Positions 10,513-32,000 of a stretch of DNA of 32,000 nucleotides are shown here, piece after piece. The notes below the pieces were generated by a model, which was not told where the DNA came from, did not search any database, and worked only from the letters and a program-made list of their open reading frames with translations. The stretch is taken from contig NZ_LN885086.1 in the NCBI RefSeq assembly GCF_001458695.1, positions 1,350,001-1,382,000 on the forward strand, in the 5' to 3' direction. Both the position numbers and the translations under genes were made by a program. The first letter of the stretch is position 1; the number at the start of each line of letters is the position of its first letter. This DNA comes from Candidatus Nitrospira inopinata. GTDB lineage: Bacteria; Nitrospirota; Nitrospiria; Nitrospirales; Nitrospiraceae.

Positions 10513-12225
10513 CTAGCCGCGCTCTTTCCAATTGGACGCCAAAATGGGCTGGAACATCGGATCGGCGTCCAGCACGGCCTTGAGCAGTTCCGTGTTGAGG
10601 AAGTACCGCCACACGACGTCATCCTGCTCATGCTTGTCGGCGATCTGGTCGAACCAGCGTTTGGCTTCCGTGAGGTGATGGAGCAGTGTGGCCTTCTCTC
10701 CGTAGTTCGGCATGAAGATCATGCAATAGGCCATGGTGTATTCGGCCAAAAACTTATCGATCGGCAGCTCAGCCAGCGCCAAGGCTCTTTCGGCGTCCGC
10801 GTAGGCCTTGACACTGTCCGGATCGTGCAAGATCCGGTTCCAGGCGACCTTGTTGATGCGTGACCAGGCGAGTTGGAGCAGGGCTTCGGCTTTGGGCGTC
10901 TTCCGGTGTTCCGGAATATCTTGAACCAACGATTCAAAAGTCTGAATCATCGGCAACTGGTCATTGTTCCACCGATACGCCATGCCGAGACGGAAGCGAT
11001 TATCCAACTGTTCGGGGTGAGTTTCCGCCAATGTCTCCATAGGGGGCAGCATGCGATACAAAAAATCCGCCGGAGTCGGTTCCGTAAGCCCTCCCATTTC
11101 CATGGTGTTTGCAAGGTCCAGCCGGGCTGATGCCGAGTAGATGTTCCAGTAGAACTCATTGACGGCGCGCGCCAGCGCGGGATCCTTGATCGCCAGATTG
11201 TGCCTGTCGGCTGCCTGGCGCAGCAACGCGGTGTACAGGTGTCTCGATAAAACCGTCAGTGCGTCGGTTTGTCGAGGATCGATCAAGAGAATGCGGTTGA
11301 GCAACGCCACTCGGTCGCGCAGGTCGGGAAAGGCCGCCGCTCTGACCGCCGCGGCGGCCAGCGTGCCCGGTTGGTCTTGCGGAGACCACCAGGTCAATGA
11401 GTTCGGAATGGCGCGGCTTCTTTCCGTGGTAAAGGGAACGGTGTCGGGTCGTGCTTGGGCGGTCTCCGGTTCCGTCGGGACGGGAAGGAGAAACACTGCG
11501 GAATCTTCCGAAAACCCGTGTTTTTTGAGGCGGGAGAACACCACCCACTGGGTGGTGATGGACTTCAACGCTCCTCTCGCCCGCTTCACCGTATTGGTCC
11601 AACGCACGGTTCCAGGGGCATAGGTGACGGGGGACGTCAAAGGATCTTGATAGTGAACCGTCACCTCGACCACCGTGGCGGGCACGCCGACGACGTTTCC
11701 GTCCGGCTTGAGACGAAACGATCCGTCCGGAATATGTCTGCTGTTTGCCACGGTCAAATGGAGCCCGCTTCCCGGAGGAGAAACTCCTATCGAATCCATC
11801 ACAAAGGCGGAAGGGGGAAGGTCCAGCACGTCGTCGCCGAAGAACACGAGCGGACCGGTGCTGGGCCAGAGGACGTCCATACCCATGTCCGTGCGAGTCA
11901 ACGTGTGCGCGTGGGCGTCGGTCATTTCCCGCCAACACCGGTCGTAGAGTGAGCCGATTGTCGCCGAGGAAGGTGGGAGGTTTTTTTTCAGTCCTGTCAG
12001 CAGTCGATACTGGCAGGAAAAGTCCAATTTGCCGAACGTGGCGCGGTCGCCTTGAGAAATCGCGGTCGCATAGGCGAGCACGGTTTCGACGGCGGCCTTG
12101 TCCGCCGGCGCTCTCTTTTTCTGCGAAAGAGCGGCCGCGAGGGAAGAATCAAAGTTGAACGTCGCGAAGAGGGCCCAGCATCCCGACAGCGCCAGGAGAA
12201 AAAACGGTCGCCGGATCAAACTCAT
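10513..12225 (-). CDS. Hypothetical lipoprotein, 570 aa, no recognisable domain
   Basis: The ATG at 12225 is preceded by AAGGA. The signal peptide MSLIRRPFFLLALSGC carries a lipobox-like LSGC. The composition looks protein-like over the full length and the C-terminal half is helical. No motif I can assign. Confidence 0.7.
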   Translation of the reverse strand: MSLIRRPFFLLALSGCWALFATFNFDSSLAAALSQKKRAPADKAAVETVLAYATAISQGDRATFGKLDFSCQYRLLTGLKKNLPPSSATIGSLYDRCWREMTDAHAHTLTRTDMGMDVLWPSTGPLVFFGDDVLDLPPSAFVMDSIGVSPPGSGLHLTVANSRHIPDGSFRLKPDGNVVGVPATVVEVTVHYQDPLTSPVTYAPGTVRWTNTVKRARGALKSITTQWVVFSRLKKHGFSEDSAVFLLPVPTEPETAQARPDTVPFTTERSRAIPNSLTWWSPQDQPGTLAAAAVRAAAFPDLRDRVALLNRILLIDPRQTDALTVLSRHLYTALLRQAADRHNLAIKDPALARAVNEFYWNIYSASARLDLANTMEMGGLTEPTPADFLYRMLPPMETLAETHPEQLDNRFRLGMAYRWNNDQLPMIQTFESLVQDIPEHRKTPKAEALLQLAWSRINKVAWNRILHDPDSVKAYADAERALALAELPIDKFLAEYTMAYCMIFMPNYGEKATLLHHLTEAKRWFDQIADKHEQDDVVWRYFLNTELLKAVLDADPMFQPILASNWKERG

Positions 12226-12426
12226 GGAGATTCCTTCTGTTAAGTTTTGCAGAGAAGCCTTGGCAAGACGATCGAGGAGTAACTTTACCACGAGACCGCC
12301 CTGATCCGGTAGAGAGTCGGAGGCCGACCATTCCTCCGCAGGGACGACCGATGGGTTGAAGGACCCCTGATCGCCGCCCCGTTTTTGTCCTCGACGTTGA
12401 CGGAAGGGAAGAGAGTCCGGGAACGG

Positions 12427-12726
12427 TTATCTGCGGCCGGCGGCCGACAAGATTCTTTCTCGCATCCGCGCTCGATCGTACGCCGTAAGGACCGGAGCGG
12501 GGATTCGTCGGCACAAGGAGACGGTCTGACGAAGAGAAACGACGAAGTCCTCGCAGCGGGGACAAGCTCCGAGGTGACGGCGGATCTCCGAACAAACGTC
12601 GCGCGGCAGTTCATCGTCGATGAAGGCCGACAATGCACGAAGAATACGGAGACATCGCCCAGACTTGTGGCGATGGGGTTCGGTCGGGGAATGAGCCGGA
12701 CGTTTGGAAGAGGAATGTTTGGCCAT
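12427..12726 (-). CDS. Cytoplasmic zinc-binding anti-sigma factor (ZAS, RsrA-like, no TM segment)
   Basis: The 99-aa product starts 16 nt after the ECF sigma stop. It carries an H-x3-C-x2-C motif (RRHLGACPRCEDF, H51/C55/C58) plus C25 located 26 residues before the His. There is no hydrophobic segment. Confidence 0.75.
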   Translation of the reverse strand: MAKHSSSKRPAHSPTEPHRHKSGRCLRILRALSAFIDDELPRDVCSEIRRHLGACPRCEDFVVSLRQTVSLCRRIPAPVLTAYDRARMRERILSAAGRR

Positions 12727-12742: not shown

Positions 12743-13372
12743 CTATGAAATCGAGTCTCGCTCGTGAGAGTCCTGGCCGTCGGCAAGACCCTGCGTGCTG
12801 AGTTCGCGGCGGACAAACAAACGCGCGCGGTGGAGCCGCGATTTGACGGCGCGTTCGTTCAATCCCATAACCGTTCCCACTTCCTTGGCGCTCAAGCCTT
12901 CCATGTCGCGCAGCACGAGCACCATTTTATATTTTGGGGGCAATCTGTCAATCGCGTCGTTGAGCGCCTGCCGAAGTTGCTTGTTCTGGAGCGCCTCTTC
13001 GGGACTGAGATCGTCCACGGGGATCTGGAGATGAAGTTCGCCGTCGCTGGTGGGCACAAACTCTTCCAGCGACAATTCACGTTGAGGGGCTCCTTTCCGG
13101 CGTCGCCGCATGCGCAGGCACGCGCGGGAGGCGATGGTATAAAGCCAGGTGGAAACTTGCGCCTCGCCGCGGAACCGTGTGAATCCCCGATAGGCGTTCA
13201 AAAACGTTTCCTGGACCAAGTCTTTGGCCGCTTCGGTTTCTCCGCAGAGCCGGCTCGCGTACCGGTACATCAGATCCACGTGGTTCCGATACAGCGCATC
13301 GAAGGCGTCCTGTATCTTGGCTGAGACGGAAGACCGCTCGCGCGGCGTGGGGTGAGAACGCGAGGCCATCAT
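12743..13372 (-). CDS. ECF-type RNA polymerase sigma factor (sigma-70 regions 2 and 4)
   Basis: Region 2: AAKDLVQETFLNAYRGFTRFRGEAQVSTWLYTIASRACLRMRRRR. Region 4: LPPKYKMVLVLRDMEGLSAKEVGTVMGLNERAVKSRLHRARLFVRREL. Confidence 0.9.
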   Translation of the reverse strand: MMASRSHPTPRERSSVSAKIQDAFDALYRNHVDLMYRYASRLCGETEAAKDLVQETFLNAYRGFTRFRGEAQVSTWLYTIASRACLRMRRRRKGAPQRELSLEEFVPTSDGELHLQIPVDDLSPEEALQNKQLRQALNDAIDRLPPKYKMVLVLRDMEGLSAKEVGTVMGLNERAVKSRLHRARLFVRRELSTQGLADGQDSHERDSIS

Positions 13373-13419: not shown

Positions 13420-14427
13420 CTAGTGAGGGCGATGAAAGTCGACCACGTCTCCACGCCCGTTCAGTTCGGCGGTAATGGTGTGGCCTTCCTTCAAGCCGGC
13501 CAAAGCGGTTTTCCCATGATGTACGGAATCGAGCGGGTAAATCTGCTCGCCTTCGGGCGTCCACAATTTCACGCTCGTGCGGTCCGGCGCGGCGAATTCG
13601 AGCGGACCGGTCACGAATCGGCGGGTCGTCGAGGGAGCATGCGGCGCCGACACGTCCGCCACCATGTGTCGTGCATGAATGTACAGGGTCATCGTATGTC
13701 CCACCCGAACATCTTTGATGCCGATCTTGGCGTTCACGTTGATGATACCGATGGGTGTTCGCAGGAAAATGAAGTTGGATTTCAGCTTGTCCACCGTGCC
13801 GGTCAGGACGAGGTGCGCGGCGGATCGTCCGGTGGGAAGTTGCCCGATCTGAAGGTCGAACTGCACGTCGTGCACGCCGACGACGGTGTCCGTCTCGTCC
13901 ACTTCCACGGTGACGGGATCGCCTTCCCGGAAACCGGCCAGCGACCGCTCGTAGGCGCCGAAAGCGACGGCCTTCTCCCCTTCCGGGCTCCATCGCAACA
14001 GTTTGGTCGGATCGTCGTCGCTTCGTTTGAACGGTCCGCCGAGATAGCGATGGATCAGCGATCCGTCGCTCCGCTTTCGGATGTCGATGGCGGAGTGAAC
14101 GTCATGGACCCAAAACGTCACCGCTTGGGAGGCCAGCACGTTTTTGAGCGTCGTCTTTGAGCTCAGCGTGAGCAGACCGACCGGCGTTTTCAAAAACACA
14201 ATGCCGGGCTTGGTCCTCCAGACTTGGCCCGTGAGGGTGATCGACGGATTGGCGTCACCGGCGGAAACGTCGGTTGTTTCGGTCGCTTGATCGGATTCCG
14301 GCTCTTCGACCGTCGTCAGTTCCTCTTCGGCGAAATCCGGCGTCTCGGCACGGGCGATACAGGGCGAGAGAAGGATCAGGACGATCCCCAGACCGTAAGG
14401 AAATCGTTTGATGAGCAATGACGGCAT
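13420..14427 (-). CDS. Hypothetical exported protein built from two tandem ~125-130-aa repeats
   Basis: The signal peptide MPSLLIKRFPYGLGIVLILLSPCIARA follows the ATG at 14427; in-frame alternatives exist at 14451 and 14550. There is a clear internal duplication (LTGxV...FLxTPxG...K..V...H..H, GP...LW.PEGE...LAG..EG..T.E...VV..H). No known family recognised. Confidence 0.65.
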   Translation of the reverse strand: MPSLLIKRFPYGLGIVLILLSPCIARAETPDFAEEELTTVEEPESDQATETTDVSAGDANPSITLTGQVWRTKPGIVFLKTPVGLLTLSSKTTLKNVLASQAVTFWVHDVHSAIDIRKRSDGSLIHRYLGGPFKRSDDDPTKLLRWSPEGEKAVAFGAYERSLAGFREGDPVTVEVDETDTVVGVHDVQFDLQIGQLPTGRSAAHLVLTGTVDKLKSNFIFLRTPIGIINVNAKIGIKDVRVGHTMTLYIHARHMVADVSAPHAPSTTRRFVTGPLEFAAPDRTSVKLWTPEGEQIYPLDSVHHGKTALAGLKEGHTITAELNGRGDVVDFHRPH

Positions 14428-14631
14428 CGCGGCATTCAACCATCGAACCATCAGCGCGAAACATTGCGGCGACTCGATCTGGGCAGGCGATCTGCCGGCG
14501 CACATGCGGATCGCGCGTCGATCAATGCAGTGATGGTATGCGAATAGCACGGGTTGCCGGGACAGTCAACCCGAAAACGGGTTTCGTTTGAAACGCGCGG
14601 GCCGCAAGGAACTCGCGAGCGAACAGCGGAG

Positions 14632-22860: not shown

Positions 22861-22938
22861 GGTGGATGTAGCTCAGTTGGTCAGAGCGCCGGATTGTGGA
22901 TCCGGAGGTCGCGGGTTCGACACCCGTCATCCACCCCA
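22861..22938 (+). tRNA. tRNA-His (anticodon GTG) with the extra 5' G(-1) and a genomically encoded CCA
   Basis: The cloverleaf was folded by hand. G-1 pairs with the discriminator C. The acceptor stem is GTGGATG/CATCCAC, the D arm AGCTCAGTTGGTCAGAGC, and the anticodon arm CCGGA-TTGTGGA-TCCGG. The variable loop is AGGTC and the T arm GCGGG-TTCGACA-CCCGT, followed by CCA. Confidence 0.95.
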
Positions 22939-25133: not shown

Positions 25134-25364
25134 ATGGTGGATGTGACGACGGATGGGGGACGGGCGGTCATGATCGGCATCGGGGTGGCCGGAGTGGCGT
25201 TGTTTCTCGTCGCGCGAGTCATCGGCTTGATGATCCAGCGAAAGGGGGAGCGGGGGCATCCCCAGCCTCCGGCCCAAGCCTCTCCCCCTATCCGTGGAGA
25301 ATTTGCCGAGCAACCAAGTGATAAGCAGAAAGATGGCACGAGAGAAAGCGACCGTCGGATGTGA
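25134..25364 (+). CDS. Small single-pass membrane protein (76 aa), hypothetical
   Basis: The ATG follows GGGAGGATGTC. One TM helix (AVMIGIGVAGVALFLVARVIGLMI) precedes a Pro/Gln/charged tail. The gene lies 161 nt upstream of the MHYT sensor gene on the same strand. Confidence 0.45.
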   Translation: MVDVTTDGGRAVMIGIGVAGVALFLVARVIGLMIQRKGERGHPQPPAQASPPIRGEFAEQPSDKQKDGTRESDRRM

Positions 25365-25525: not shown

Positions 25526-28294
25526 TTGCTCGGAATTTGCGACCCGGTGCTGGCCGTTTGCTCGATGCTGCTGGGCGGCGCGGCAGCCTACGTCGTTCTC
25601 AGCATCGCCGAGCGGATGCGCGCCACCGATCAGCGGCTGGTGAAGCTGCAATGGCTTTCGATCGGCGCCGTCGCCGCCGGGCTCGAAATATGGGCGATCC
25701 ATTTCATCGGGAACCTGGCCTTTTGCCCTCCGACTCACACGGCTCAGCACTCGGCGCTCGCCGTGTTTTCCGTTCTGTCCGCAGGAGGGGCCGGAGCCGC
25801 GGCCGTCTATCTCATCAGTAGCCATAACGGGGACCCCCTTCGACTCGTGGCCGGCGGCCTGGTGATGGGCGGGTGCATGAGCGTCACCCATTTCACCGGT
25901 TTGATGGCGTTGCACCGGTCGATGGATCTTCGGTGGGATTGGTTCCTGTTCGCCCTCTCGATCGCGATCATCGTCATGCTCGGCGTCGGCGTCGTTGCGC
26001 TTGGGGCCTGGAACATTGCGGCAGGCGGCTGGCGGGTGACCGAAAAGGCCAGCGCGATGGGGTTGGTTCTTTCCGGGGCCCATGTCATCGGGATGATGCC
26101 GGCGTACGGTCTGGCCGATATCGAGGTCGGCGCCCCGCCGGGAATCGCGGTCGACTTGCTGGCCGTGGTCGCCGTGGCCCTCTCGACCCTTTTAGCCGTG
26201 ATCGATCGACAAGTCACGAAAGCGTCGAACCTGGCTCGCGACAGCCATGCACGGATGATCGAGGCCATCGAAATGGTTCCGCAGTGGTTTGCGCTGTTCG
26301 ACGCCGACGACCGGCTGGTGATCTGCAATCGCAAATATCGGGAGGTGGTCTCGCGACCAGGGGCCGAGGTGAAAGCGGGCGAGTCGTTCGAGTCGATCAT
26401 CCGCCGCCTCGCCGAGCGGGGCGACATCCCCGCCGCCGCCGGGGACGTTGAAGCATGGGTGCGAATGCGCCTCGACCGGCATCGGAATCCCCAGGAGCCG
26501 TATATTCATCAACGAGCGAGCGGAGAATGGATCCAGATCAACGAAAGAAGGACGAAGGACGGCGGGGTCATCGCCATTGCAACGGACATCACGGCGTTGA
26601 AGCGGGCGGAACAGGCCGCCGAGGACGCCAAGGCGCGATTGGCCGACTCGTTGGCGCTGGTCGAGGCGGCCAAGGCCCGAATGCAAGAGGAGTTGAACGT
26701 CGGCCGGGACATTCAGAGAAGTCTCTTGCCGAACGTTTTCCCGGAGCGAAAGGATCTGGAACTCTACGCGCTTCTTGAGCCGGCCCTGGAAATCGGAGGC
26801 GACCTCTACGATTTCTTTATGATCGACGACCACCGGCTCTGCGTCGTGATCGGCGACGTGGCGGGTAACGGGGTGCCGGCCGCGTTGTTCATGGCGATGA
26901 CCAAAATCACGGTGAAGACGCGGGCGATGTCCGATCCGTCGCCGGCCAGCATCGTCACCTATGTGAACGATGCGCTCAGCGCGGACAACGATTCCTGCAT
27001 GTTCGTGACTCTGTATTTGGGCATTTTGAATCTCCGCGACGGCGTGCTGCTCGCGACGAACGCCGGGCACAATCCTCCTCTCCTGAAACGGCGGAACGGT
27101 CGGTTTGAGTGGATGCCCGATCTGGACGGGCCCATGGTGGGTCCCATGGCGGGCATTGCCTTCAAGGAGAGCAGGATTCAGTTGGAGCCCGGCGATGAGT
27201 TGTTCTTGTACACCGACGGGGTGACGGAAGCCGATAACGGCCGCCGCGAATTGTTCGGCAACGATCGGTTGAAAACGGTCCTCGACCGGTCCGGAGACAT
27301 CTCGGTCGTCGATCGCCTTCAAGCGGTCATGAAAGCGGTCAAAGCCTTTGCCGGCGACGCTCCGCAGGCGGATGACATCACCATGTTGGGATTTCGATTC
27401 AACGGCGTGGTCGCGTCCGAAGCGGGGGACGGAGGGTTTCGTCGAACCATGTCCAACCAATTGGCCGAGATTCCCGATCTCCAGACCGCGTTCGAGCGGT
27501 ACGTGGCTCAATGGGAACGGGCCAGGCCGCTGATTCCCGTTCTCAACATGGCGCTCGACGATCTGCTGAACAACGTGGTGCAGTACGCGTTCCCCCATGA
27601 TCCGACGGCCCATCATGCGATCACGGTCGAGGGCGAAGTGCGCGACGAGCACGTCGTGCTCACCATTGCCGACGACGGCATCCCCTTTAACCCCTTGACG
27701 GTGGCTCCCCCCGATCTGTCGTTGCTGTTGCACGAACGTGAGATCGGCGGCTTGGGGATTCATTTGGTTCGCTCCATGTTCGACGAAGTGACGTACCGGC
27801 GCAACGTCGGGCGTAATATTCTGACGCTGAAAAAGAAGCTGGTGCCCGGAGCATCCGCTTCCCCCGGTCATGCCGAGTCGGTGGTGGGCGGCGTGGTCGA
27901 AGTTGAAAAGGGGCTTGCCCGATCCGCTCAATTGACGGGACGAATCGTGGGAAACGTCGAAACGTGGCGCTCAGGCGCCGCGGTCATTGTCGTGCCGAGG
28001 GACCGATTTGATACGAACAGCGCGCCGGCGGTCGAGCGCGTCATCACCGACCATATCGAGCGGGGCGAACGGAGGATCGTGCTCGATCTTTCCCGTATTT
28101 CATACATCTCCTCGATCGGGGTGCGAGTGATCGTCAAGACCGTCATAACACTGATGCGAACGGGCGGGCACGTCGCGCTTTTCGGGGGGAACGAGCATGT
28201 CCGCACGGTCATGCGATTAAGCGGCTCTCTGATGGCGAGCCTCCACGTCTCCACGCTTGAAGAAGCTCTGTTTAAGGTCCAAGCTGATCGCTGA
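25526..28294 (+). CDS. Multidomain membrane signalling protein: MHYT sensor, PAS, PP2C/SpoIIE phosphatase, RsbW/SpoIIAB-type GHKL kinase and a STAS (anti-sigma antagonist) domain
   Basis: TTG at 25526 is the first start after the in-frame stop at 25511, with GGAG 6 nt upstream. The MHYT region has six hydrophobic segments with IWAIHFIGNLAF, SVTHFTGLMAL and GAHVIGMMPAY. The PAS domain reads VPQWFALFDADDRLVICNRKYREVV...GEWIQINERRTKDGGVIAIATDITALKRAE. PP2C motifs are GGDLYDF, GDVAGNGVPAAL, LYTDGVTEA and DDITML. Kinase motifs are LLNNVVQYAF, DDGIPFNP and GGLGIHLV. The STAS motif is LDLSRISYISSIGVRVIV. Confidence 0.9.
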   Translation: MLGICDPVLAVCSMLLGGAAAYVVLSIAERMRATDQRLVKLQWLSIGAVAAGLEIWAIHFIGNLAFCPPTHTAQHSALAVFSVLSAGGAGAAAVYLISSHNGDPLRLVAGGLVMGGCMSVTHFTGLMALHRSMDLRWDWFLFALSIAIIVMLGVGVVALGAWNIAAGGWRVTEKASAMGLVLSGAHVIGMMPAYGLADIEVGAPPGIAVDLLAVVAVALSTLLAVIDRQVTKASNLARDSHARMIEAIEMVPQWFALFDADDRLVICNRKYREVVSRPGAEVKAGESFESIIRRLAERGDIPAAAGDVEAWVRMRLDRHRNPQEPYIHQRASGEWIQINERRTKDGGVIAIATDITALKRAEQAAEDAKARLADSLALVEAAKARMQEELNVGRDIQRSLLPNVFPERKDLELYALLEPALEIGGDLYDFFMIDDHRLCVVIGDVAGNGVPAALFMAMTKITVKTRAMSDPSPASIVTYVNDALSADNDSCMFVTLYLGILNLRDGVLLATNAGHNPPLLKRRNGRFEWMPDLDGPMVGPMAGIAFKESRIQLEPGDELFLYTDGVTEADNGRRELFGNDRLKTVLDRSGDISVVDRLQAVMKAVKAFAGDAPQADDITMLGFRFNGVVASEAGDGGFRRTMSNQLAEIPDLQTAFERYVAQWERARPLIPVLNMALDDLLNNVVQYAFPHDPTAHHAITVEGEVRDEHVVLTIADDGIPFNPLTVAPPDLSLLLHEREIGGLGIHLVRSMFDEVTYRRNVGRNILTLKKKLVPGASASPGHAESVVGGVVEVEKGLARSAQLTGRIVGNVETWRSGAAVIVVPRDRFDTNSAPAVERVITDHIERGERRIVLDLSRISYISSIGVRVIVKTVITLMRTGGHVALFGGNEHVRTVMRLSGSLMASLHVSTLEEALFKVQADR

Positions 28295-28423
28295 GGGCCT
28301 CGCGCAACTCGGCAAAAAGGCGTCCGCTCATACCAATCGGCGAGCGGTTCCGTGTGTTCCCGTTGAGATGGAAATGGAATCCGTGAGGTGTCGTTGCTAT
28401 GATGGGCCGACAATCGGACAGAT

Positions 28424-28453
28424 AGAACGCGGATAAACAGAACGCGGACAAAC
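28424..28453. repeat. Tandem 15-bp direct repeat AGAACGCGGA(T/C)AAAC x2 upstream of the free STAS gene
   Basis: Units lie at 28424-28438 and 28439-28453 with 14/15 identity. A partial third copy (CGGACAGA) sits just upstream. The repeat lies 135 nt before the STAS ATG. Confidence 0.6.
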
Positions 28454-28493
28454 GGAATTGGCGGTTCACGTTGCCTGACGTCGAACGGCGTCC

Positions 28494-28507
28494 GGCATGA
28501 TCATGCC
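28494..28507. promoter_or_regulatory. Perfect 14-bp palindrome GGCATGATCATGCC (candidate operator) upstream of the free STAS gene
   Basis: The sequence is exactly self-complementary and lies 81 nt before the ATG at 28588, downstream of a TTGCCT hexamer (28471-28476). Any function is inferred only. Confidence 0.3.
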
Positions 28508-28587
28508 CCAAGAGGGCGCGCCGACACGTGCGCATCCTATCGGTGCCAAAGTCGAGAAGCGGTCTTCTCGCAGAAAGGAGCGTGACG

Positions 28588-28971
28588 ATGGAACAGGGAA
28601 CCAGACATACATTGACGGTAGCCGTTCATGAAAACGCCGGGGTCACTTGTGTCGCGTTGCAGGGCAGCCTCTCCGCCACCACCGCCGAACAGGGAACTCA
28701 AGAATTAAAAAAGATCATCGATGCGGGCGCCAAGAAGGTGGTCGTCAATCTGGAAGGCGTCGACTATATCAGCAGCGGTGGGATACGGGTGCTCATGCTG
28801 GCGCACAAACAGCTCAGCAACGTGCATGGGGAGATGAAGATCGCGGCCGCGAGGGGGATGGTCAAAGAAGCCCTTGAAGCCAGCGGGTTTAATCTGCTGA
28901 ATCGCGTGTACGGCGGCTCCATTCAACTGTGCAATACGGAAGAAGAGGCCGTGGCCGCCTTTCAAGGCTAG
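28588..28971 (+). CDS. STAS-domain anti-sigma-factor antagonist (RsbV/SpoIIAA-like)
   Basis: The ATG at 28588 is preceded by AAAGGAG. The 127-aa product carries VVVNLEGVDYISSGGIRVLMLAHKQL, with the conserved phosphorylatable Ser in the ISSGG context. Confidence 0.9.
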   Translation: MEQGTRHTLTVAVHENAGVTCVALQGSLSATTAEQGTQELKKIIDAGAKKVVVNLEGVDYISSGGIRVLMLAHKQLSNVHGEMKIAAARGMVKEALEASGFNLLNRVYGGSIQLCNTEEEAVAAFQG

Positions 28972-29014: not shown

Positions 29015-29986
29015 ATGCACTACGTCCATCTTGGGCGCTCGGGTGTGAGAGTGAGCCGACTCTGCCTGGGCACGATGAATTTCGGTCCCCAGACGAGCGA
29101 GGCCGAGAGTTTTGCGATCATGGATCGAGCCTTGGAGCTGGGCATCAATTTTTTCGACACGGCCGACGTGTACGGCTGGAAAGTGGGCGAAGGGTGGACG
29201 GAGCAGATTGTCGGCCGATGGTTCAAACAGGGTGGAGGGCGGCGGGACAAGGTCGTGCTGGCGACCAAGGTCTATGGCCGCATGGGCGATTGGCCCAACC
29301 AATCGCGCCTGTCGGCGTTGCACATCAAACGGGCTTGCGAGGAGAGTTTGCGGCGGTTGGGGACGGATTCTATCGATCTCTATCAGATGCATCACGTTGA
29401 TCGGGAGTCACCATGGGATGAAATCTGGCAGGCGATGGAGCAGTTGGTGCGGGAAGGGAAGATTGTCTACGTCGGCAGCAGCAATTTCGCCGCCTGGCAT
29501 CTGGCTCAGGCTCAGGAGACCGCAAAGAGCCGGCACTTCCTGGGGCTCGTCTCTGAGCAGAGTCTCTACAACTTGCTCGAACGGACGGTGGAGCTGGAGG
29601 TGATCCCGGCCTGTCAAGCCTATGGGATCGGCCTGATCCCTTGGAGCCCGCTGGCGAGGGGGGCGCTGGCTGGGGCCTTGGGACCGGTGACCGGTGGGCG
29701 TCGGGCCGGGGCGGAGGTCAAGCGAGAGATCGAGCAACATCGGGCGAAGCTGGAAGCCTATGAAACGTTCTGCCGTGATCTGGGTGAACAGCCGACGGCC
29801 GTGGCCTTGGCCTGGTTGCTCCATCAGCCGGCGGTCACGGCGCCGATTATCGGGCCGCGCACGGTCGAGCAGCTCGATAGCTCGATGCGAGCCCTCAGTC
29901 TCACGTTGAGCAGTGAGCATCTGAAACGGCTGGATGAGATCTTCCCGGGACCAGGCGGACCCGCTCCCGAAGCCTATGCCTGGTAG
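29015..29986 (+). CDS. Aldo/keto reductase (NADP-dependent oxidoreductase)
   Basis: MHYVHLGRSGVRVSRLCLGTMNFG, INFFDTADVYG, and DLYQMHHVD are present. IVYVGSSNF and LIPWSPLARG are also present. The start follows GAGGAGG. Length is 323 aa. Confidence 0.92.
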   Translation: MHYVHLGRSGVRVSRLCLGTMNFGPQTSEAESFAIMDRALELGINFFDTADVYGWKVGEGWTEQIVGRWFKQGGGRRDKVVLATKVYGRMGDWPNQSRLSALHIKRACEESLRRLGTDSIDLYQMHHVDRESPWDEIWQAMEQLVREGKIVYVGSSNFAAWHLAQAQETAKSRHFLGLVSEQSLYNLLERTVELEVIPACQAYGIGLIPWSPLARGALAGALGPVTGGRRAGAEVKREIEQHRAKLEAYETFCRDLGEQPTAVALAWLLHQPAVTAPIIGPRTVEQLDSSMRALSLTLSSEHLKRLDEIFPGPGGPAPEAYAW

Positions 29987-30027
29987 GAGGGGAGAGCCGC
30001 TGTTCGCCCTCGCGCACAGTCCCTGCG

Positions 30028-32000
30028 ATGCCCATGACCGAGCACCGGCCCGTCGTTCCTTCCACCGTTTCGCTGCCTGAAATCACGGTCAAAGCGGTCG
30101 TGCTCTCGGTGGTGCTGGCCGCTCTGTTGGCCGCCGCCAATGCCTATCTTGGGCTGTTTGCCGGCATGACCGTGTCGGCGTCGATCCCGGCGGCCGTGAC
30201 CTCGATGGCGGTGCTGCGCCTCTTCCGCCGCTCGAATATCCTCGAAAACAACATCGTCCAAACCGCCGTGTCTGCTGGAGAGGCCCTGGCGGCCGGCGTG
30301 ATCTTCACGATTCCCGCTCTGTTGTTGGTCGGCTCATGGTCCTCGTTCGACTATTGGCGGACGACCGTCATCGCGATGGTCGGTGGGTTGCTCGGCGTGC
30401 TGTTTACGATTCCGTTGCGACGGGCGCTGATCGTGACGGCACAGTTGCGATTTCCCGAAGGGGTGGCCACGGCCGAAGTACTCAAGGCGGGAGCAGCCAC
30501 TCCACATGAGGCGGGGCGGGCTGTTGCTCATGATGTCCGGGTGCTCTTGTTTTCAGCGTTGGCCGGCGGCGCGACAAAGTTTTGTGAGAGCGGCCTTCGT
30601 CTCTGGGCGGAATCGCTGGAAGGGGCGGTCCGGATCGGACGAACTCTATTCTACGGAGGCATCAATCTGTCACCGGCGTTGTTGGCGGTGGGGTTCATCT
30701 TGGGGCTCCGCACGGCGCTGGTTGTCTTTCTGGGAGGCTGTCTCGGCTGGGTGGTGTTGGTTCCGGCCCATGGGCTGTTCTTTGGAGTGCCGACCGATCG
30801 GCAGGGGATCGAGGCGGCCATGGCCATCTGGAGTGGAAAGGTCCGCTATGTGGGCATCGGGGCGATGGTGGTGGGAGGGCTCTGGACCCTGGCCCAATTG
30901 CGCGCCCCCGTCTGGCAGAGTCTTCAAGTCCTGTGGGCCCGCTATCGAGAGGCTGGAACGAAGCGGCGGAGGGGAGAGCCTCCGGGCCGGACCACTGTCG
31001 AGAACCGTGAGGGGAAAGCTGATGCGACAGCCAGGACGGAGCGGGATGCGCCGTTTTGGTGGTTGGTTGCGCCGTTCGTGCTGTTGTTGATCCCGGCGGC
31101 CTGGATCTATGCGACCGTGGTGGACAGTGTCGCGATCGGCCTGTTCATGACCCTGGTGATGACGGTCGCCGCGTTTTTGTTTTCATCGGTGGCGGCCTAT
31201 ATGGCGGGGCTGGTCGGCAGTTCCAGCAATCCTGTCTCGGGTGTGACGATCGCCACGATCATGGCTGCCTCGCTGCTGCTCGTCTTATTCATGGGAGCGG
31301 GCCATCCGGCCGGTCCCGCGGCGGCCCTGGTGATCGGAGCGGTGGTCTGCTGCGCCGCGGCCATGGGAGGTGACAATATGCAGGACCTCAAAACCGGTCA
31401 TCTGGTGGGAGCGACGCCGTGGAAGCAACAAGTGATGCAGGTGGTGGGGGTTCTCGCCGGCGCGGTGGTGTTGGCTCCTGTGCTGACGGTGCTCCAGGCC
31501 AAGTATGGCATCGGGGCGCCGACGAGCGACCATCCCCATCCGTTGAGTGCGCCGCAGGCGACGCTCATGGCCAGTCTGGCGCACAGTGTGTTCGGCGGGG
31601 CGGTTCCCTGGCCGTTGGTGGGAGCGGGGGCCGTGATCGGTGGGCTGGTGATTCTGTTGGACCAGAGACAGGAACGGCGTGGCCGGAGCTTCCGTCTCCC
31701 GATCCTGGCCGTGGCGCTGGGGATCTATCTGCCGTTGAAACTCTCTGCTGCAATCGTTGCAGGCGGGGTCGTCGCCGCTCTGGCTGAACGGGCAAGAGAA
31801 AGCGGCGGGGCCGGGGAGGATGGGGCACGGCGAGGACTCCTCTTTTCGGCCGGATTGGTTACCGGTGAATCCTTAATGGGTATTCTCTTGGCGTTGCCAG
31901 TCGCACTCGGCGCCCTGTGGCCCGGCCTTGGTTCCGATCCCTTCGCGCTGTTCGATCGTCCGCCGTTGGGCGGTTGGCCCGGCCTCTTGATGATGGCCCT
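30028..32000 (+). CDS. OPT-family oligopeptide transporter (3' end beyond the window)
   Basis: This gene is absent from the ORF track because no stop is reached. I hand-translated frame 1 over 30028-30432, 30481-31140 and 31381-31460 and saw no stop; the rest of the frame was not translated. ATGs occur at 30028 and 30034. The product reads MTEHRPVV..ITVKAVVLSVVLAALLAAANAYLGLFAGMTVSASIPAAVTSMAVLR...IFTIPALLL...MQDLKTGHLVGATPWKQQVMQVVGVLAG, typical of bacterial OPT transporters. Confidence 0.9.
   Translation, partial: MPMTEHRPVVPSTVSLPEITVKAVVLSVVLAALLAAANAYLGLFAGMTVSASIPAAVTSMAVLRLFRRSNILENNIVQTAVSAGEALAAGVIFTIPALLLVGSWSSFDYWRTTVIAMVGGLLGVLFTIPLRRALIVTAQLRFPEGVATAEVLKAGAATPHEAGRAVAHDVRVLLFSALAGGATKFCESGLRLWAESLEGAVRIGRTLFYGGINLSPALLAVGFILGLRTALVVFLGGCLGWVVLVPAHGLFFGVPTDRQGIEAAMAIWSGKVRYVGIGAMVVGGLWTLAQLRAPVWQSLQVLWARYREAGTKRRRGEPPGRTTVENREGKADATARTERDAPFWWLVAPFVLLLIPAAWIYATVVDSVAIGLFMTLVMTVAAFLFSSVAAYMAGLVGSSSNPVSGVTIATIMAASLLLVLFMGAGHPAGPAAALVIGAVVCCAAAMGGDNMQDLKTGHLVGATPWKQQVMQVVGVLAGAVVLAPVLTVLQAKYGIGAPTSDHPHPLSAPQATLMASLAHSVFGGAVPWPLVGAGAVIGGLVILLDQRQERRGRSFRLPILAVALGIYLPLKLSAAIVAGGVVAALAERARESGGAGEDGARRGLLFSAGLVTGESLMGILLALPVALGALWPGLGSDPFALFDRPPLGGWPGLLMMA

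Follow-up and report, generated by a model that had tools for sequence, protein, structure and literature searches.

The described partner-switching systems that most resemble the locus reported here are those of Pseudomonas aeruginosa (HsbR/HsbA) and Shewanella oneidensis (CrsR/CrsA), in which a PP2C phosphatase and an RsbW-type kinase are carried in one chain with a separate STAS protein alongside. HsbR and CrsR bind RpoS, and HsbA changes partner with its phosphorylation state, the targets being RpoS or FlgM (PMC6482189). In Rv1364c of Mycobacterium tuberculosis, the order PAS-PP2C-kinase-STAS is found within a single chain, and the protein is described, in a passage of PMC7693655 that cites the finding, as both phosphorylating and dephosphorylating its own STAS domain. 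Membrane MHYT domains have been listed in fusions with histidine kinases and with GGDEF, EAL, PAS and DNA-binding domains (PMC11347149). The present analysis concerns a two-gene locus of Candidatus Nitrospira inopinata, located in a window of 32,000 nucleotides (nt) (contig NZ_LN885086.1, positions 1,350,001 to 1,382,000 of the forward strand; coordinates below are those of the window), which consists of a gene for a membrane protein with MHYT, PAS, PP2C, RsbW-type kinase and STAS domains, followed by a gene for a free STAS protein. Comparison with relatives favored, with slightly more confidence than doubt, a two-gene partner switch of the sensor-PP2C-kinase plus STAS kind, in which the MHYT/PAS input and the tethered STAS would be Nitrospira additions and which would work by the mechanism proposed below. 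An earlier reading of the DNA from its letters alone (the sequence-only reading) had named a prior characterization of this exact architecture as a ground for refutation. No published account of it was found; a literature search returned no publication linking Nitrospira to partner switching, or MHYT domains to PP2C signaling or partner switching.

Composition and Conservation of the Two-Gene Module

The features of the module are listed below, with residue numbers referring to the five-domain protein.

25526–28294, + strand: five-domain gene; 922 amino acids (aa), TTG start; order MHYT, PAS_7, helical linker, PP2C, RsbW-type kinase, tether, STAS
25526–26209, + strand: seven-helix MHYT-type membrane domain, ending at 26209; residues 1–228 (Pfam MHYT; seven helices in the AF2 secondary structure)
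26270–26614, + strand: PAS_7 domain, residues 249–363 (Pfam; beta-sheet core at 253–354 in the AF2 model)
26588–26722, + strand: single long helix between PAS and PP2C, residues 355–399, 45 residues (AF2 secondary structure)
26825–27400, + strand: PP2C/SpoIIE phosphatase, residues 434–625 (Pfam; PDB relatives RssB-Pa 3eq2, SiaA 6k4e and Rv1364c 3ke6)
27452–27835, + strand: GHKL domain of the serine-kinase/anti-sigma type, residues 643–770 (N-box D679...N683, G1 DDGIPF, G2 GGLG)
27836–27973, + strand: variable kinase-STAS tether, residues 771–816 (0 of 46 positions invariant; pLDDT <50 for residues 775–806)
27974–28228, + strand: tethered STAS, residues 817–901 (predicted phospho-acceptor S863, codon 28112–28114)
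28295–28587, + strand: spacer (extended −10-like TGCTATGAT at 28395–28403; three tandem 15-mers at 28415–28459; Shine-Dalgarno AAAGGAG at 28574–28580)
28588–28971, + strand: free single-domain STAS protein, 127 aa, ATG start (Pfam STAS 1e-16; TIGR00377 66 bits)

Orthologs of the five-domain open reading frame (ORF), 912–948 aa in length and beginning at the same start position (with TTG or GTG in orthologs of 920–930 aa), were present in more than 100 independent assemblies, closed chromosomes included. In profile searches, all five domains named by the sequence-only reading exceeded the Pfam gathering scores, the kinase and STAS among them: MHYT matched residues 54–110 in two stretches (40.8 bits against a cut-off of 21), PAS_7 residues 249–363 (88 bits, 5.3e-25), SpoIIE residues 434–625 (160.6 bits, 5.6e-47), HATPase_c_2 residues 643–770 (64.7 bits, 1.1e-17) and STAS residues 817–901 (46.5 bits, 3.4e-12). 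The NCBIfam model TIGR00377 (anti-sigma factor antagonist superfamily) was also passed, at 54.8 against a cut-off of 53.45. The names given to the protein in databases (“RsbU”, “anti-sigma factor antagonist” and “SpoIIE family protein phosphatase”) were all automatic. One relative, P0002, is 1049 aa long (75% identity at 81% coverage) and is listed with a canonical HATPase_c as a further Pfam domain; either a gene model joined in error or a longer variant may be involved.

Conservation was assessed in an alignment of 118 full-length Nitrospira orthologs (70–98% identity), together with a 56-sequence subset. The catalytic motifs quoted in the sequence-only reading were all present in the translation, those of the phosphatase being GGDLYDF (424–430), GDVAGNGVPAAL (443–454), LYTDGVTEA (561–569) and DDITML (616–621) and those of the kinase LLNNVVQYAF (680–689), DDGIPFNP (716–723) and GGLGIHLV (741–748), and they had been rightly described as intact. 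Among the orthologs, the metal-binding motifs of the phosphatase (GGDLYDFF, GDVxGNGVPAA, YTDGVTEADN and QADDIT) were invariant, as were the N-box (NMALDDLLNNVVQYAFP), G1 (DDGIPFNP) and G2 (GGLGIH) motifs of the kinase, which aligned to SpoIIAB (1til/1l0o) and RsbW (6m36) with N683 placed on the Mg-binding Asn50 of SpoIIAB. In the fused STAS, the motif ISYISSIGVRV occupied residues 858–868, with codons 28109–28114 encoding S862 and S863; the segment Y860-I-S-S-I-G865 was invariant in all orthologs, and S863 fell in the column of SpoIIAA S58 in the STAS alignment. Fifteen further STAS proteins of related modules also have a serine at this acceptor position (SpoIIAA S58/RsbV S56). Given the invariance of the catalytic motifs and acceptor serines across orthologs, the enzymatic domains carry intact motifs, and both degenerate domains and assembly artefacts can be set aside.

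The AF2 model of the full-length protein, built from 56 orthologs, had a mean pLDDT of 59 and a pTM of 0.34 and was good for secondary structure and domain limits only. The segment of about 45 residues between the kinase and the fused STAS was the sole unconstrained part of the protein and the part with the lowest model confidence, as would be expected of a flexible tether.

The free STAS gene starts 293 nt past the stop of the five-domain gene, as stated in the sequence-only reading; throughout the 40 Nitrospira loci with downstream flank, it begins with ATG and encodes 127 aa. Codons 28771–28776 encode S62 and S63, of which S63 (codon 28774–28776) is the predicted acceptor, as it aligns with S58 of SpoIIAA (1auz); it was present in every locus, within a context, DYISSGGIRV, that was near-invariant over the 40 loci (one reads DSISSGG and one ends IRT). 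The positions given earlier for the serine pairs of both STAS domains were therefore correct, with the amendment that the second serine of each pair, S863 or S63, is the predicted acceptor. The free STAS had earlier been called a paralog of the fused one; an identity of 28% across 57 residues indicates that the two are not recent paralogs.

No terminator was found between the two genes, a promoter and terminator scan gave nothing above shuffled expectation, and Rfam returned no RNA element in or around the module. As the −10-like TGCTATGAT recurs in several species, the free STAS gene may have its own promoter or operator within the spacer; TGCTATGAT/TGCTATTAT-like elements were seen in the spacers of L003, L008 and L019. 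The tandem 15-nt repeats of the spacer read CGGACAGATAGAACG, CGGATAAACAGAACG and CGGACAAACGGAATT. The full three-copy array was present in the window and in L002 only, the near-identical L001 matching at the first and third positions only.

Distribution and Origin of the Module

The two-gene module was conserved in at least about 40 Nitrospira species genomes, including those of complete ammonia oxidizers (comammox) such as Ca. N. nitrificans. In all 40 of the Nitrospira loci with flank, the gene directly downstream of the five-domain one was that of the free STAS, and the question of whether it is always adjacent, raised by the sequence-only reading, is answered in the affirmative. A search of 1.84 billion cluster representatives yielded only one cluster (P0023, Nitrospira) matching residues 1–919. 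When the 149 other best representatives were re-scanned domain by domain, a PP2C domain was found in 121, a kinase in 118 and an MHYT domain in three, namely two partial sequences belonging to this Nitrospira family and P0224, an MHYT-PAS histidine kinase. No MHYT-PP2C protein outside the Nitrospira family was present among these 149, and none of them carried a STAS domain by single-sequence or STAS-profile scan.

The nearest relatives place HAMP, PAS, DAHL, dCache or TorS-type sensors before the PP2C-kinase, and their chain stops after the kinase; in the 62 relatives with a recognizable N-box, the chain ended 90–113 residues beyond it, as against 246 in the Nitrospira protein. A STAS gene adjoined the PP2C-kinase gene in 22 of 34 non-Nitrospira loci, and such a neighbor was usual where loci were examined one by one. 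The free STAS shared 50% identity with its counterpart in a paralogous Nitrospira module and 38–41% with the second STAS of Rhodobacterales modules, whereas the fused STAS was 21–33% identical to all partner-switch STAS proteins compared. Because a PP2C-kinase with an adjacent free STAS is very common, the free STAS is taken as the ancestral partner, and the sensor-PP2C-kinase with a free STAS as the common, ancestral unit. Since the free STAS is also the one closest to the cognate STAS of related modules, the tethered C-terminal STAS and the MHYT-PAS input are the lineage-specific additions. The sequence-only reading had treated the free STAS as the unusual extra; with 118–121 of the 149 relatives having the PP2C-kinase arrangement, the evidence points in the opposite direction.

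The paralogous module (L036, L037, L038 and L046, from other Nitrospiraceae metagenome-assembled genomes, MAGs) comprises a 123–124-aa STAS with the acceptor context DYIASAG and, downstream of it, a HAMP-PP2C-kinase. The latter has about 700 aa, is 71–73% identical to residues 370–772 and is without a fused STAS. Two copies were seen in MAG SAW316.

Fused triads were also sought in other phyla. The candidate loci, chosen for a tblastn match reaching residue 900–915 or so (L048, L050, L051, L054, L056, L058, L064, L065 and L076), were rejected on inspection of their ORFs, as they consisted of separate rsbU/rsbW/rsbV-like genes or of a PP2C-kinase with a separate STAS, with no fusions.

The Membrane and PAS Input

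Seven membrane helices, rather than the six of the sequence-only reading, were predicted from the AF2 secondary structure. The MHYT-PAS region was 35% identical to that of the histidine kinase P0224, and the assignment of the MHYT fold holds. One His per MHYT repeat (H59, H122 and H186) was invariant, as were C67 and C117. The Met and Tyr of the motif were, however, replaced in all three repeats (IHF, THF and AHV for MHY), only the His being kept; the repeats read AIHFIGN, VTHFTGL and GAHVIGM, compared with AMHFIGM, IMHYSGM and GTHYTAM in P0224. Copper binding via Met, His and Tyr residues that are conserved was proposed for MHYT domains, and the first experimental validation, obtained in 2024 with CoxC, concerned copper-dependent CO sensing, copper-dependent binding of a diatomic gas being shown for CoxC only (PMC11347149). 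As the Met and Tyr proposed to ligate copper have been lost from the repeats, the gas or redox sensor put forward in the sequence-only reading is weakened, although the fold itself stands. A His-triad metal site in the membrane domain is possible.

Between the sensor and the phosphatase, residues 364–433 formed the best-conserved stretch of the protein (mean column conservation 0.96), and it is in this stretch that the long PAS-PP2C helix lies. A coiled-coil linker has been proposed to let diverse sensor domains activate dimers of PPM phosphatases (PMC12143880), and the modeled helix fits such a linker.

Proposed Mechanism and Alternatives

In the proposed mechanism, the GHKL kinase would phosphorylate the STAS serines by default, acting on S863 in cis or within a dimer and on S63 of the free protein. 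A signal received by the membrane/PAS region would be transmitted through the long PAS-PP2C helix, which would form a coiled coil in the dimer, and would switch on the PP2C phosphatase, which would then strip the phosphates from the STAS domains. The unphosphorylated free STAS would bind the kinase or another partner and so alter a target encoded elsewhere, whether a sigma factor, an anti-sigma factor or an enzyme. The tethered STAS, being held at high local concentration, would compete from within the chain, as a substrate of the kinase or by occupying it, and would set the threshold for the free STAS. The invariance of the PP2C and kinase motifs and of both STAS serines, together with the variability of the tether, was counted in favor of this partner-switch reading, as were the five domain matches, the alignment of the kinase with SpoIIAB and RsbW structures, the constant pairing with the free STAS gene, the PP2C-kinase layout of the nearest relatives, the long linker helix and the precedents of Rv1364c, HsbR/HsbA and CrsR. 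It is plausible that the two STAS domains compete and that the output is diffusible.

The following observations weigh against the mechanism as proposed. The AF2 model is of low confidence and is uninformative on the docking of the tethered STAS onto the kinase. The lack of the proposed copper-binding Met and Tyr makes the nature of the input, and even its existence, uncertain. Across 40 Nitrospira loci, nothing that could plausibly be the target, such as a sigma factor, an anti-sigma factor or a GGDEF protein, was conserved within ±8 kb of the module. Finally, Asp, and not the more usual Glu, stands four positions before the Mg-binding Asn of the kinase, as it does in 12 of the 62 relatives with a recognizable N-box.

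One alternative is a closed circuit of the Rv1364c kind, in which the tethered STAS would be the sole substrate, the kinase would sequester a distant sigma factor, and the free STAS would be served mainly by another pair, for example the HAMP-PP2C-kinase paralog. The domain order is indeed that of Rv1364c, which in the citing passage of PMC7693655 acts on its own STAS, and some Nitrospira possess both this paralog (71–73% identical) and a STAS 50% identical to the free one. However, the paralogous module has its own STAS gene, the free STAS gene adjoins the five-domain gene in every one of the 40 loci, and it is the free STAS, not the fused one, that resembles the cognate STAS of related PP2C-kinase modules, so that a closed circuit was considered unlikely.

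An improbable alternative of another kind is that the tethered STAS is no phospho-substrate and has instead a structural, dimerization or ligand-binding role, as in transporters and stressosome proteins, which would leave the free STAS as the sole switch. Such a role would be consistent with the equal distance of the fused STAS (21–33%) from all partner-switch STAS proteins compared and with the narrow margin by which TIGR00377 was passed (54.8 against 53.45), but it is difficult to reconcile with a Y-I-S-S-I-G segment that is invariant in all orthologs with its Ser at the SpoIIAA S58 position, and with a flexible, variable tether of the sort that a cis-substrate requires.

A degenerate pseudo-enzyme scaffold, or an assembly or frameshift artefact joining separate genes, is highly improbable and effectively refuted by conservation, since the Asp for the usual Glu in the N-box and the Pro at the second Gly of the SpoIIAB G1 box, which could be read as signs of decay, occur beside metal- and ATP-binding motifs that are all invariant, the Asp recurring in 12 of 62 relatives and DxGxPF being the norm across the PP2C-kinase family, and since an ORF of 912–948 aa is found in more than 100 independent assemblies, closed chromosomes included. 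The RsbW of B. subtilis is likewise without the second Gly of the G1 box. There is a slim chance that the locus works by some mechanism outside the partner switch proposed and these three alternatives.

A more specific form of the proposed partner switch would be self-referencing: a tethered and a diffusible STAS would compete for the active sites of one kinase/phosphatase pair, with the tethered copy as an internal buffer, the His-triad variant of the MHYT domain would sense a membrane-soluble gas or redox cue, and the target would be non-neighboring and possibly not a sigma factor. The conjunction of all these points is unlikely. If true, it would predict an ultrasensitive or delayed response of the free STAS and a cue relevant to nitrite oxidation (NO, O2 or CO), and it would provide the first link of an MHYT-type sensor to Ser/Thr phospho-signaling.

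Nitrospira are the main nitrite oxidizers, complete ammonia oxidizers included, in soils, waters and treatment plants, and to our knowledge almost nothing is known of how they sense their environment. Given its conservation in at least about 40 Nitrospira species genomes, comammox included, the module is a good candidate for a lineage-specific environmental switch. Two issues that it raises are whether a Ser/Thr phosphatase can be driven by a membrane domain of the MHYT type, by way of the coiled-coil activation put forward for PPM phosphatases, and how a covalently tethered antagonist affects the dynamics of a partner switch when a free antagonist is present as well.

Genomic Neighborhood

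Upstream of the module, holA, pyrF and tRNA-His are found in the window and in a few relatives, and an S26 signal peptidase gene in most Nitrospira; downstream, a DeaD helicase gene is found in most Nitrospira. The module thus moves as a two-gene unit, the pairing with the free STAS being constant while the other neighbors change. When neighbors were clustered over 41 Nitrospira loci, the only recurring products were the S26 signal peptidase, the DeaD helicase, a Zn peptidase, a flavin adenine dinucleotide (FAD) protein and a DUF1232 protein; these were uninformative, and guilt by association was therefore rejected as a route to the target. A sigma factor gene elsewhere in the window and the two genes that follow it are listed below.

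12743–13372, − strand: extracytoplasmic function (ECF) sigma factor, the only sigma factor in the window
about 12430–12720, − strand: ZAS-type anti-sigma factor carrying HLGACPRC, located after the ECF sigma factor
10513–12291, − strand: 592-aa protein with no Pfam match, following the ZAS anti-sigma factor

The ECF sigma factor lies 12 kb from the module, has its own ZAS anti-sigma factor, as the sequence-only reading had stated, and is not syntenic with the module elsewhere; the conserved neighborhood of the module contains no sigma factor. Between the ECF sigma factor and the Der GTPase gene is a 376-aa ORF (13420–14550, − strand) with coding-like G+C at third codon positions (GC3) and no Pfam match.

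After the tRNA-His gene (22862–22938) comes a stretch of about 2.6 kb with lower G+C (0.57–0.59), reaching to 25525, in which only small ORFs without family matches were found: one of 102 aa (+ strand), one of 166 aa (− strand) and a putative membrane peptide of 76 aa at 25134–25364. As no more than about 550 nt separate pyrF from the five-domain gene in related loci (L029), this stretch of about 2.6 kb may be a small insertion beside the tRNA. On the other side of the module, an aldo/keto reductase gene (29015–29986) overlaps by about 50 nt the start of an ORF for an OPT-family oligopeptide transporter (29938–32000); the former was seen in the closest relatives (L001 and L002) only, and an OPT gene is found 3–5 kb downstream of the module in many Nitrospira.

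Comparison with Known Systems

In the RsbU-RsbW-RsbV and SpoIIE-SpoIIAB-SpoIIAA modules of Bacillus, the three catalytic and substrate folds and the position of the acceptor Ser are those of the Nitrospira module. The Bacillus modules differ, however, in consisting of three separate proteins encoded in an operon with a cognate sigma factor (SigB or SigF), whereas the Nitrospira module has its domains fused, contains a second STAS and lies in a neighborhood without a sigma factor. One phosphatase/kinase pair with two STAS proteins is also found in the Rsb system of Chlamydia, where both STAS proteins are free.

With HsbR/HsbA and CrsR/CrsA the resemblance is one of layout, the closest relatives of Nitrospira residues 370–772 all being PP2C-kinases. 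The Nitrospira input is nevertheless a membrane MHYT-PAS region and not a receiver domain (none was found by Pfam), and the chain has an additional C-terminal tethered STAS. The NCBIfam equivalogs for RssB and SiaA remained far under their cut-offs, with 50 bits against 700 for NF045505 (RssB_Pseudo).

Rv1364c has the same order of cytoplasmic domains and, as cited in PMC7693655 and PMC12143880, offers a precedent for a kinase and a phosphatase that act on a STAS within their own chain. An MHYT domain is absent from this soluble protein, which is not known to have an obligatory adjacent free STAS. Similarity to the Nitrospira protein was confined to the PP2C part (3ke6, E 1e-9, residues 421–570), the kinase part of 3ke6 giving no match even at E ≤ 1. 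As this kinase part went undetected and the close relatives of the Nitrospira protein are without a STAS, the Nitrospira triple fusion most likely arose independently of Rv1364c, and the protein would be Rv1364c-like in layout without being a member of that family.

In the Rhodobacterales, two separate STAS genes come after the gene for a dCache-HAMP-PAS-PP2C-kinase of about 1200 aa (L047, 5607–10112; L052; L059). The order sensor-PP2C-kinase, STAS-1 and STAS-2 is collinear with that of Nitrospira, except that both STAS proteins are free there and the first is tethered in Nitrospira only. This collinear two-STAS order suggests that a neighboring gene may have been fused to give the tethered STAS. 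STAS-2 was 38–41% identical to the free Nitrospira STAS, whereas STAS-1, at 28–31%, was no closer to the fused STAS than other STAS proteins were. BLAST did not single out STAS-1 (28–31%) as the homolog of the fused STAS over STAS-2 (22–26%) or unrelated STAS proteins (32–33%).

As regards input, the MHYT sensors CoxC, NbdA and MucR and the MHYT histidine kinases share this membrane fold, a His being present in each of helices 2, 4 and 6, but they differ from the Nitrospira protein, which is without the Met and Tyr of the motif in all three repeats and whose output is a Ser/Thr phosphatase-kinase pair, a combination absent from the fusions listed in PMC11347149. The components, the logic of the partner switch and even the triple fusion (in Rv1364c) are thus already known, and no new principle is involved. 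What appears to be new, judging from the sequences compared, is an MHYT input joined to a pair of tethered and free STAS domains, a combination restricted to the genus Nitrospira.

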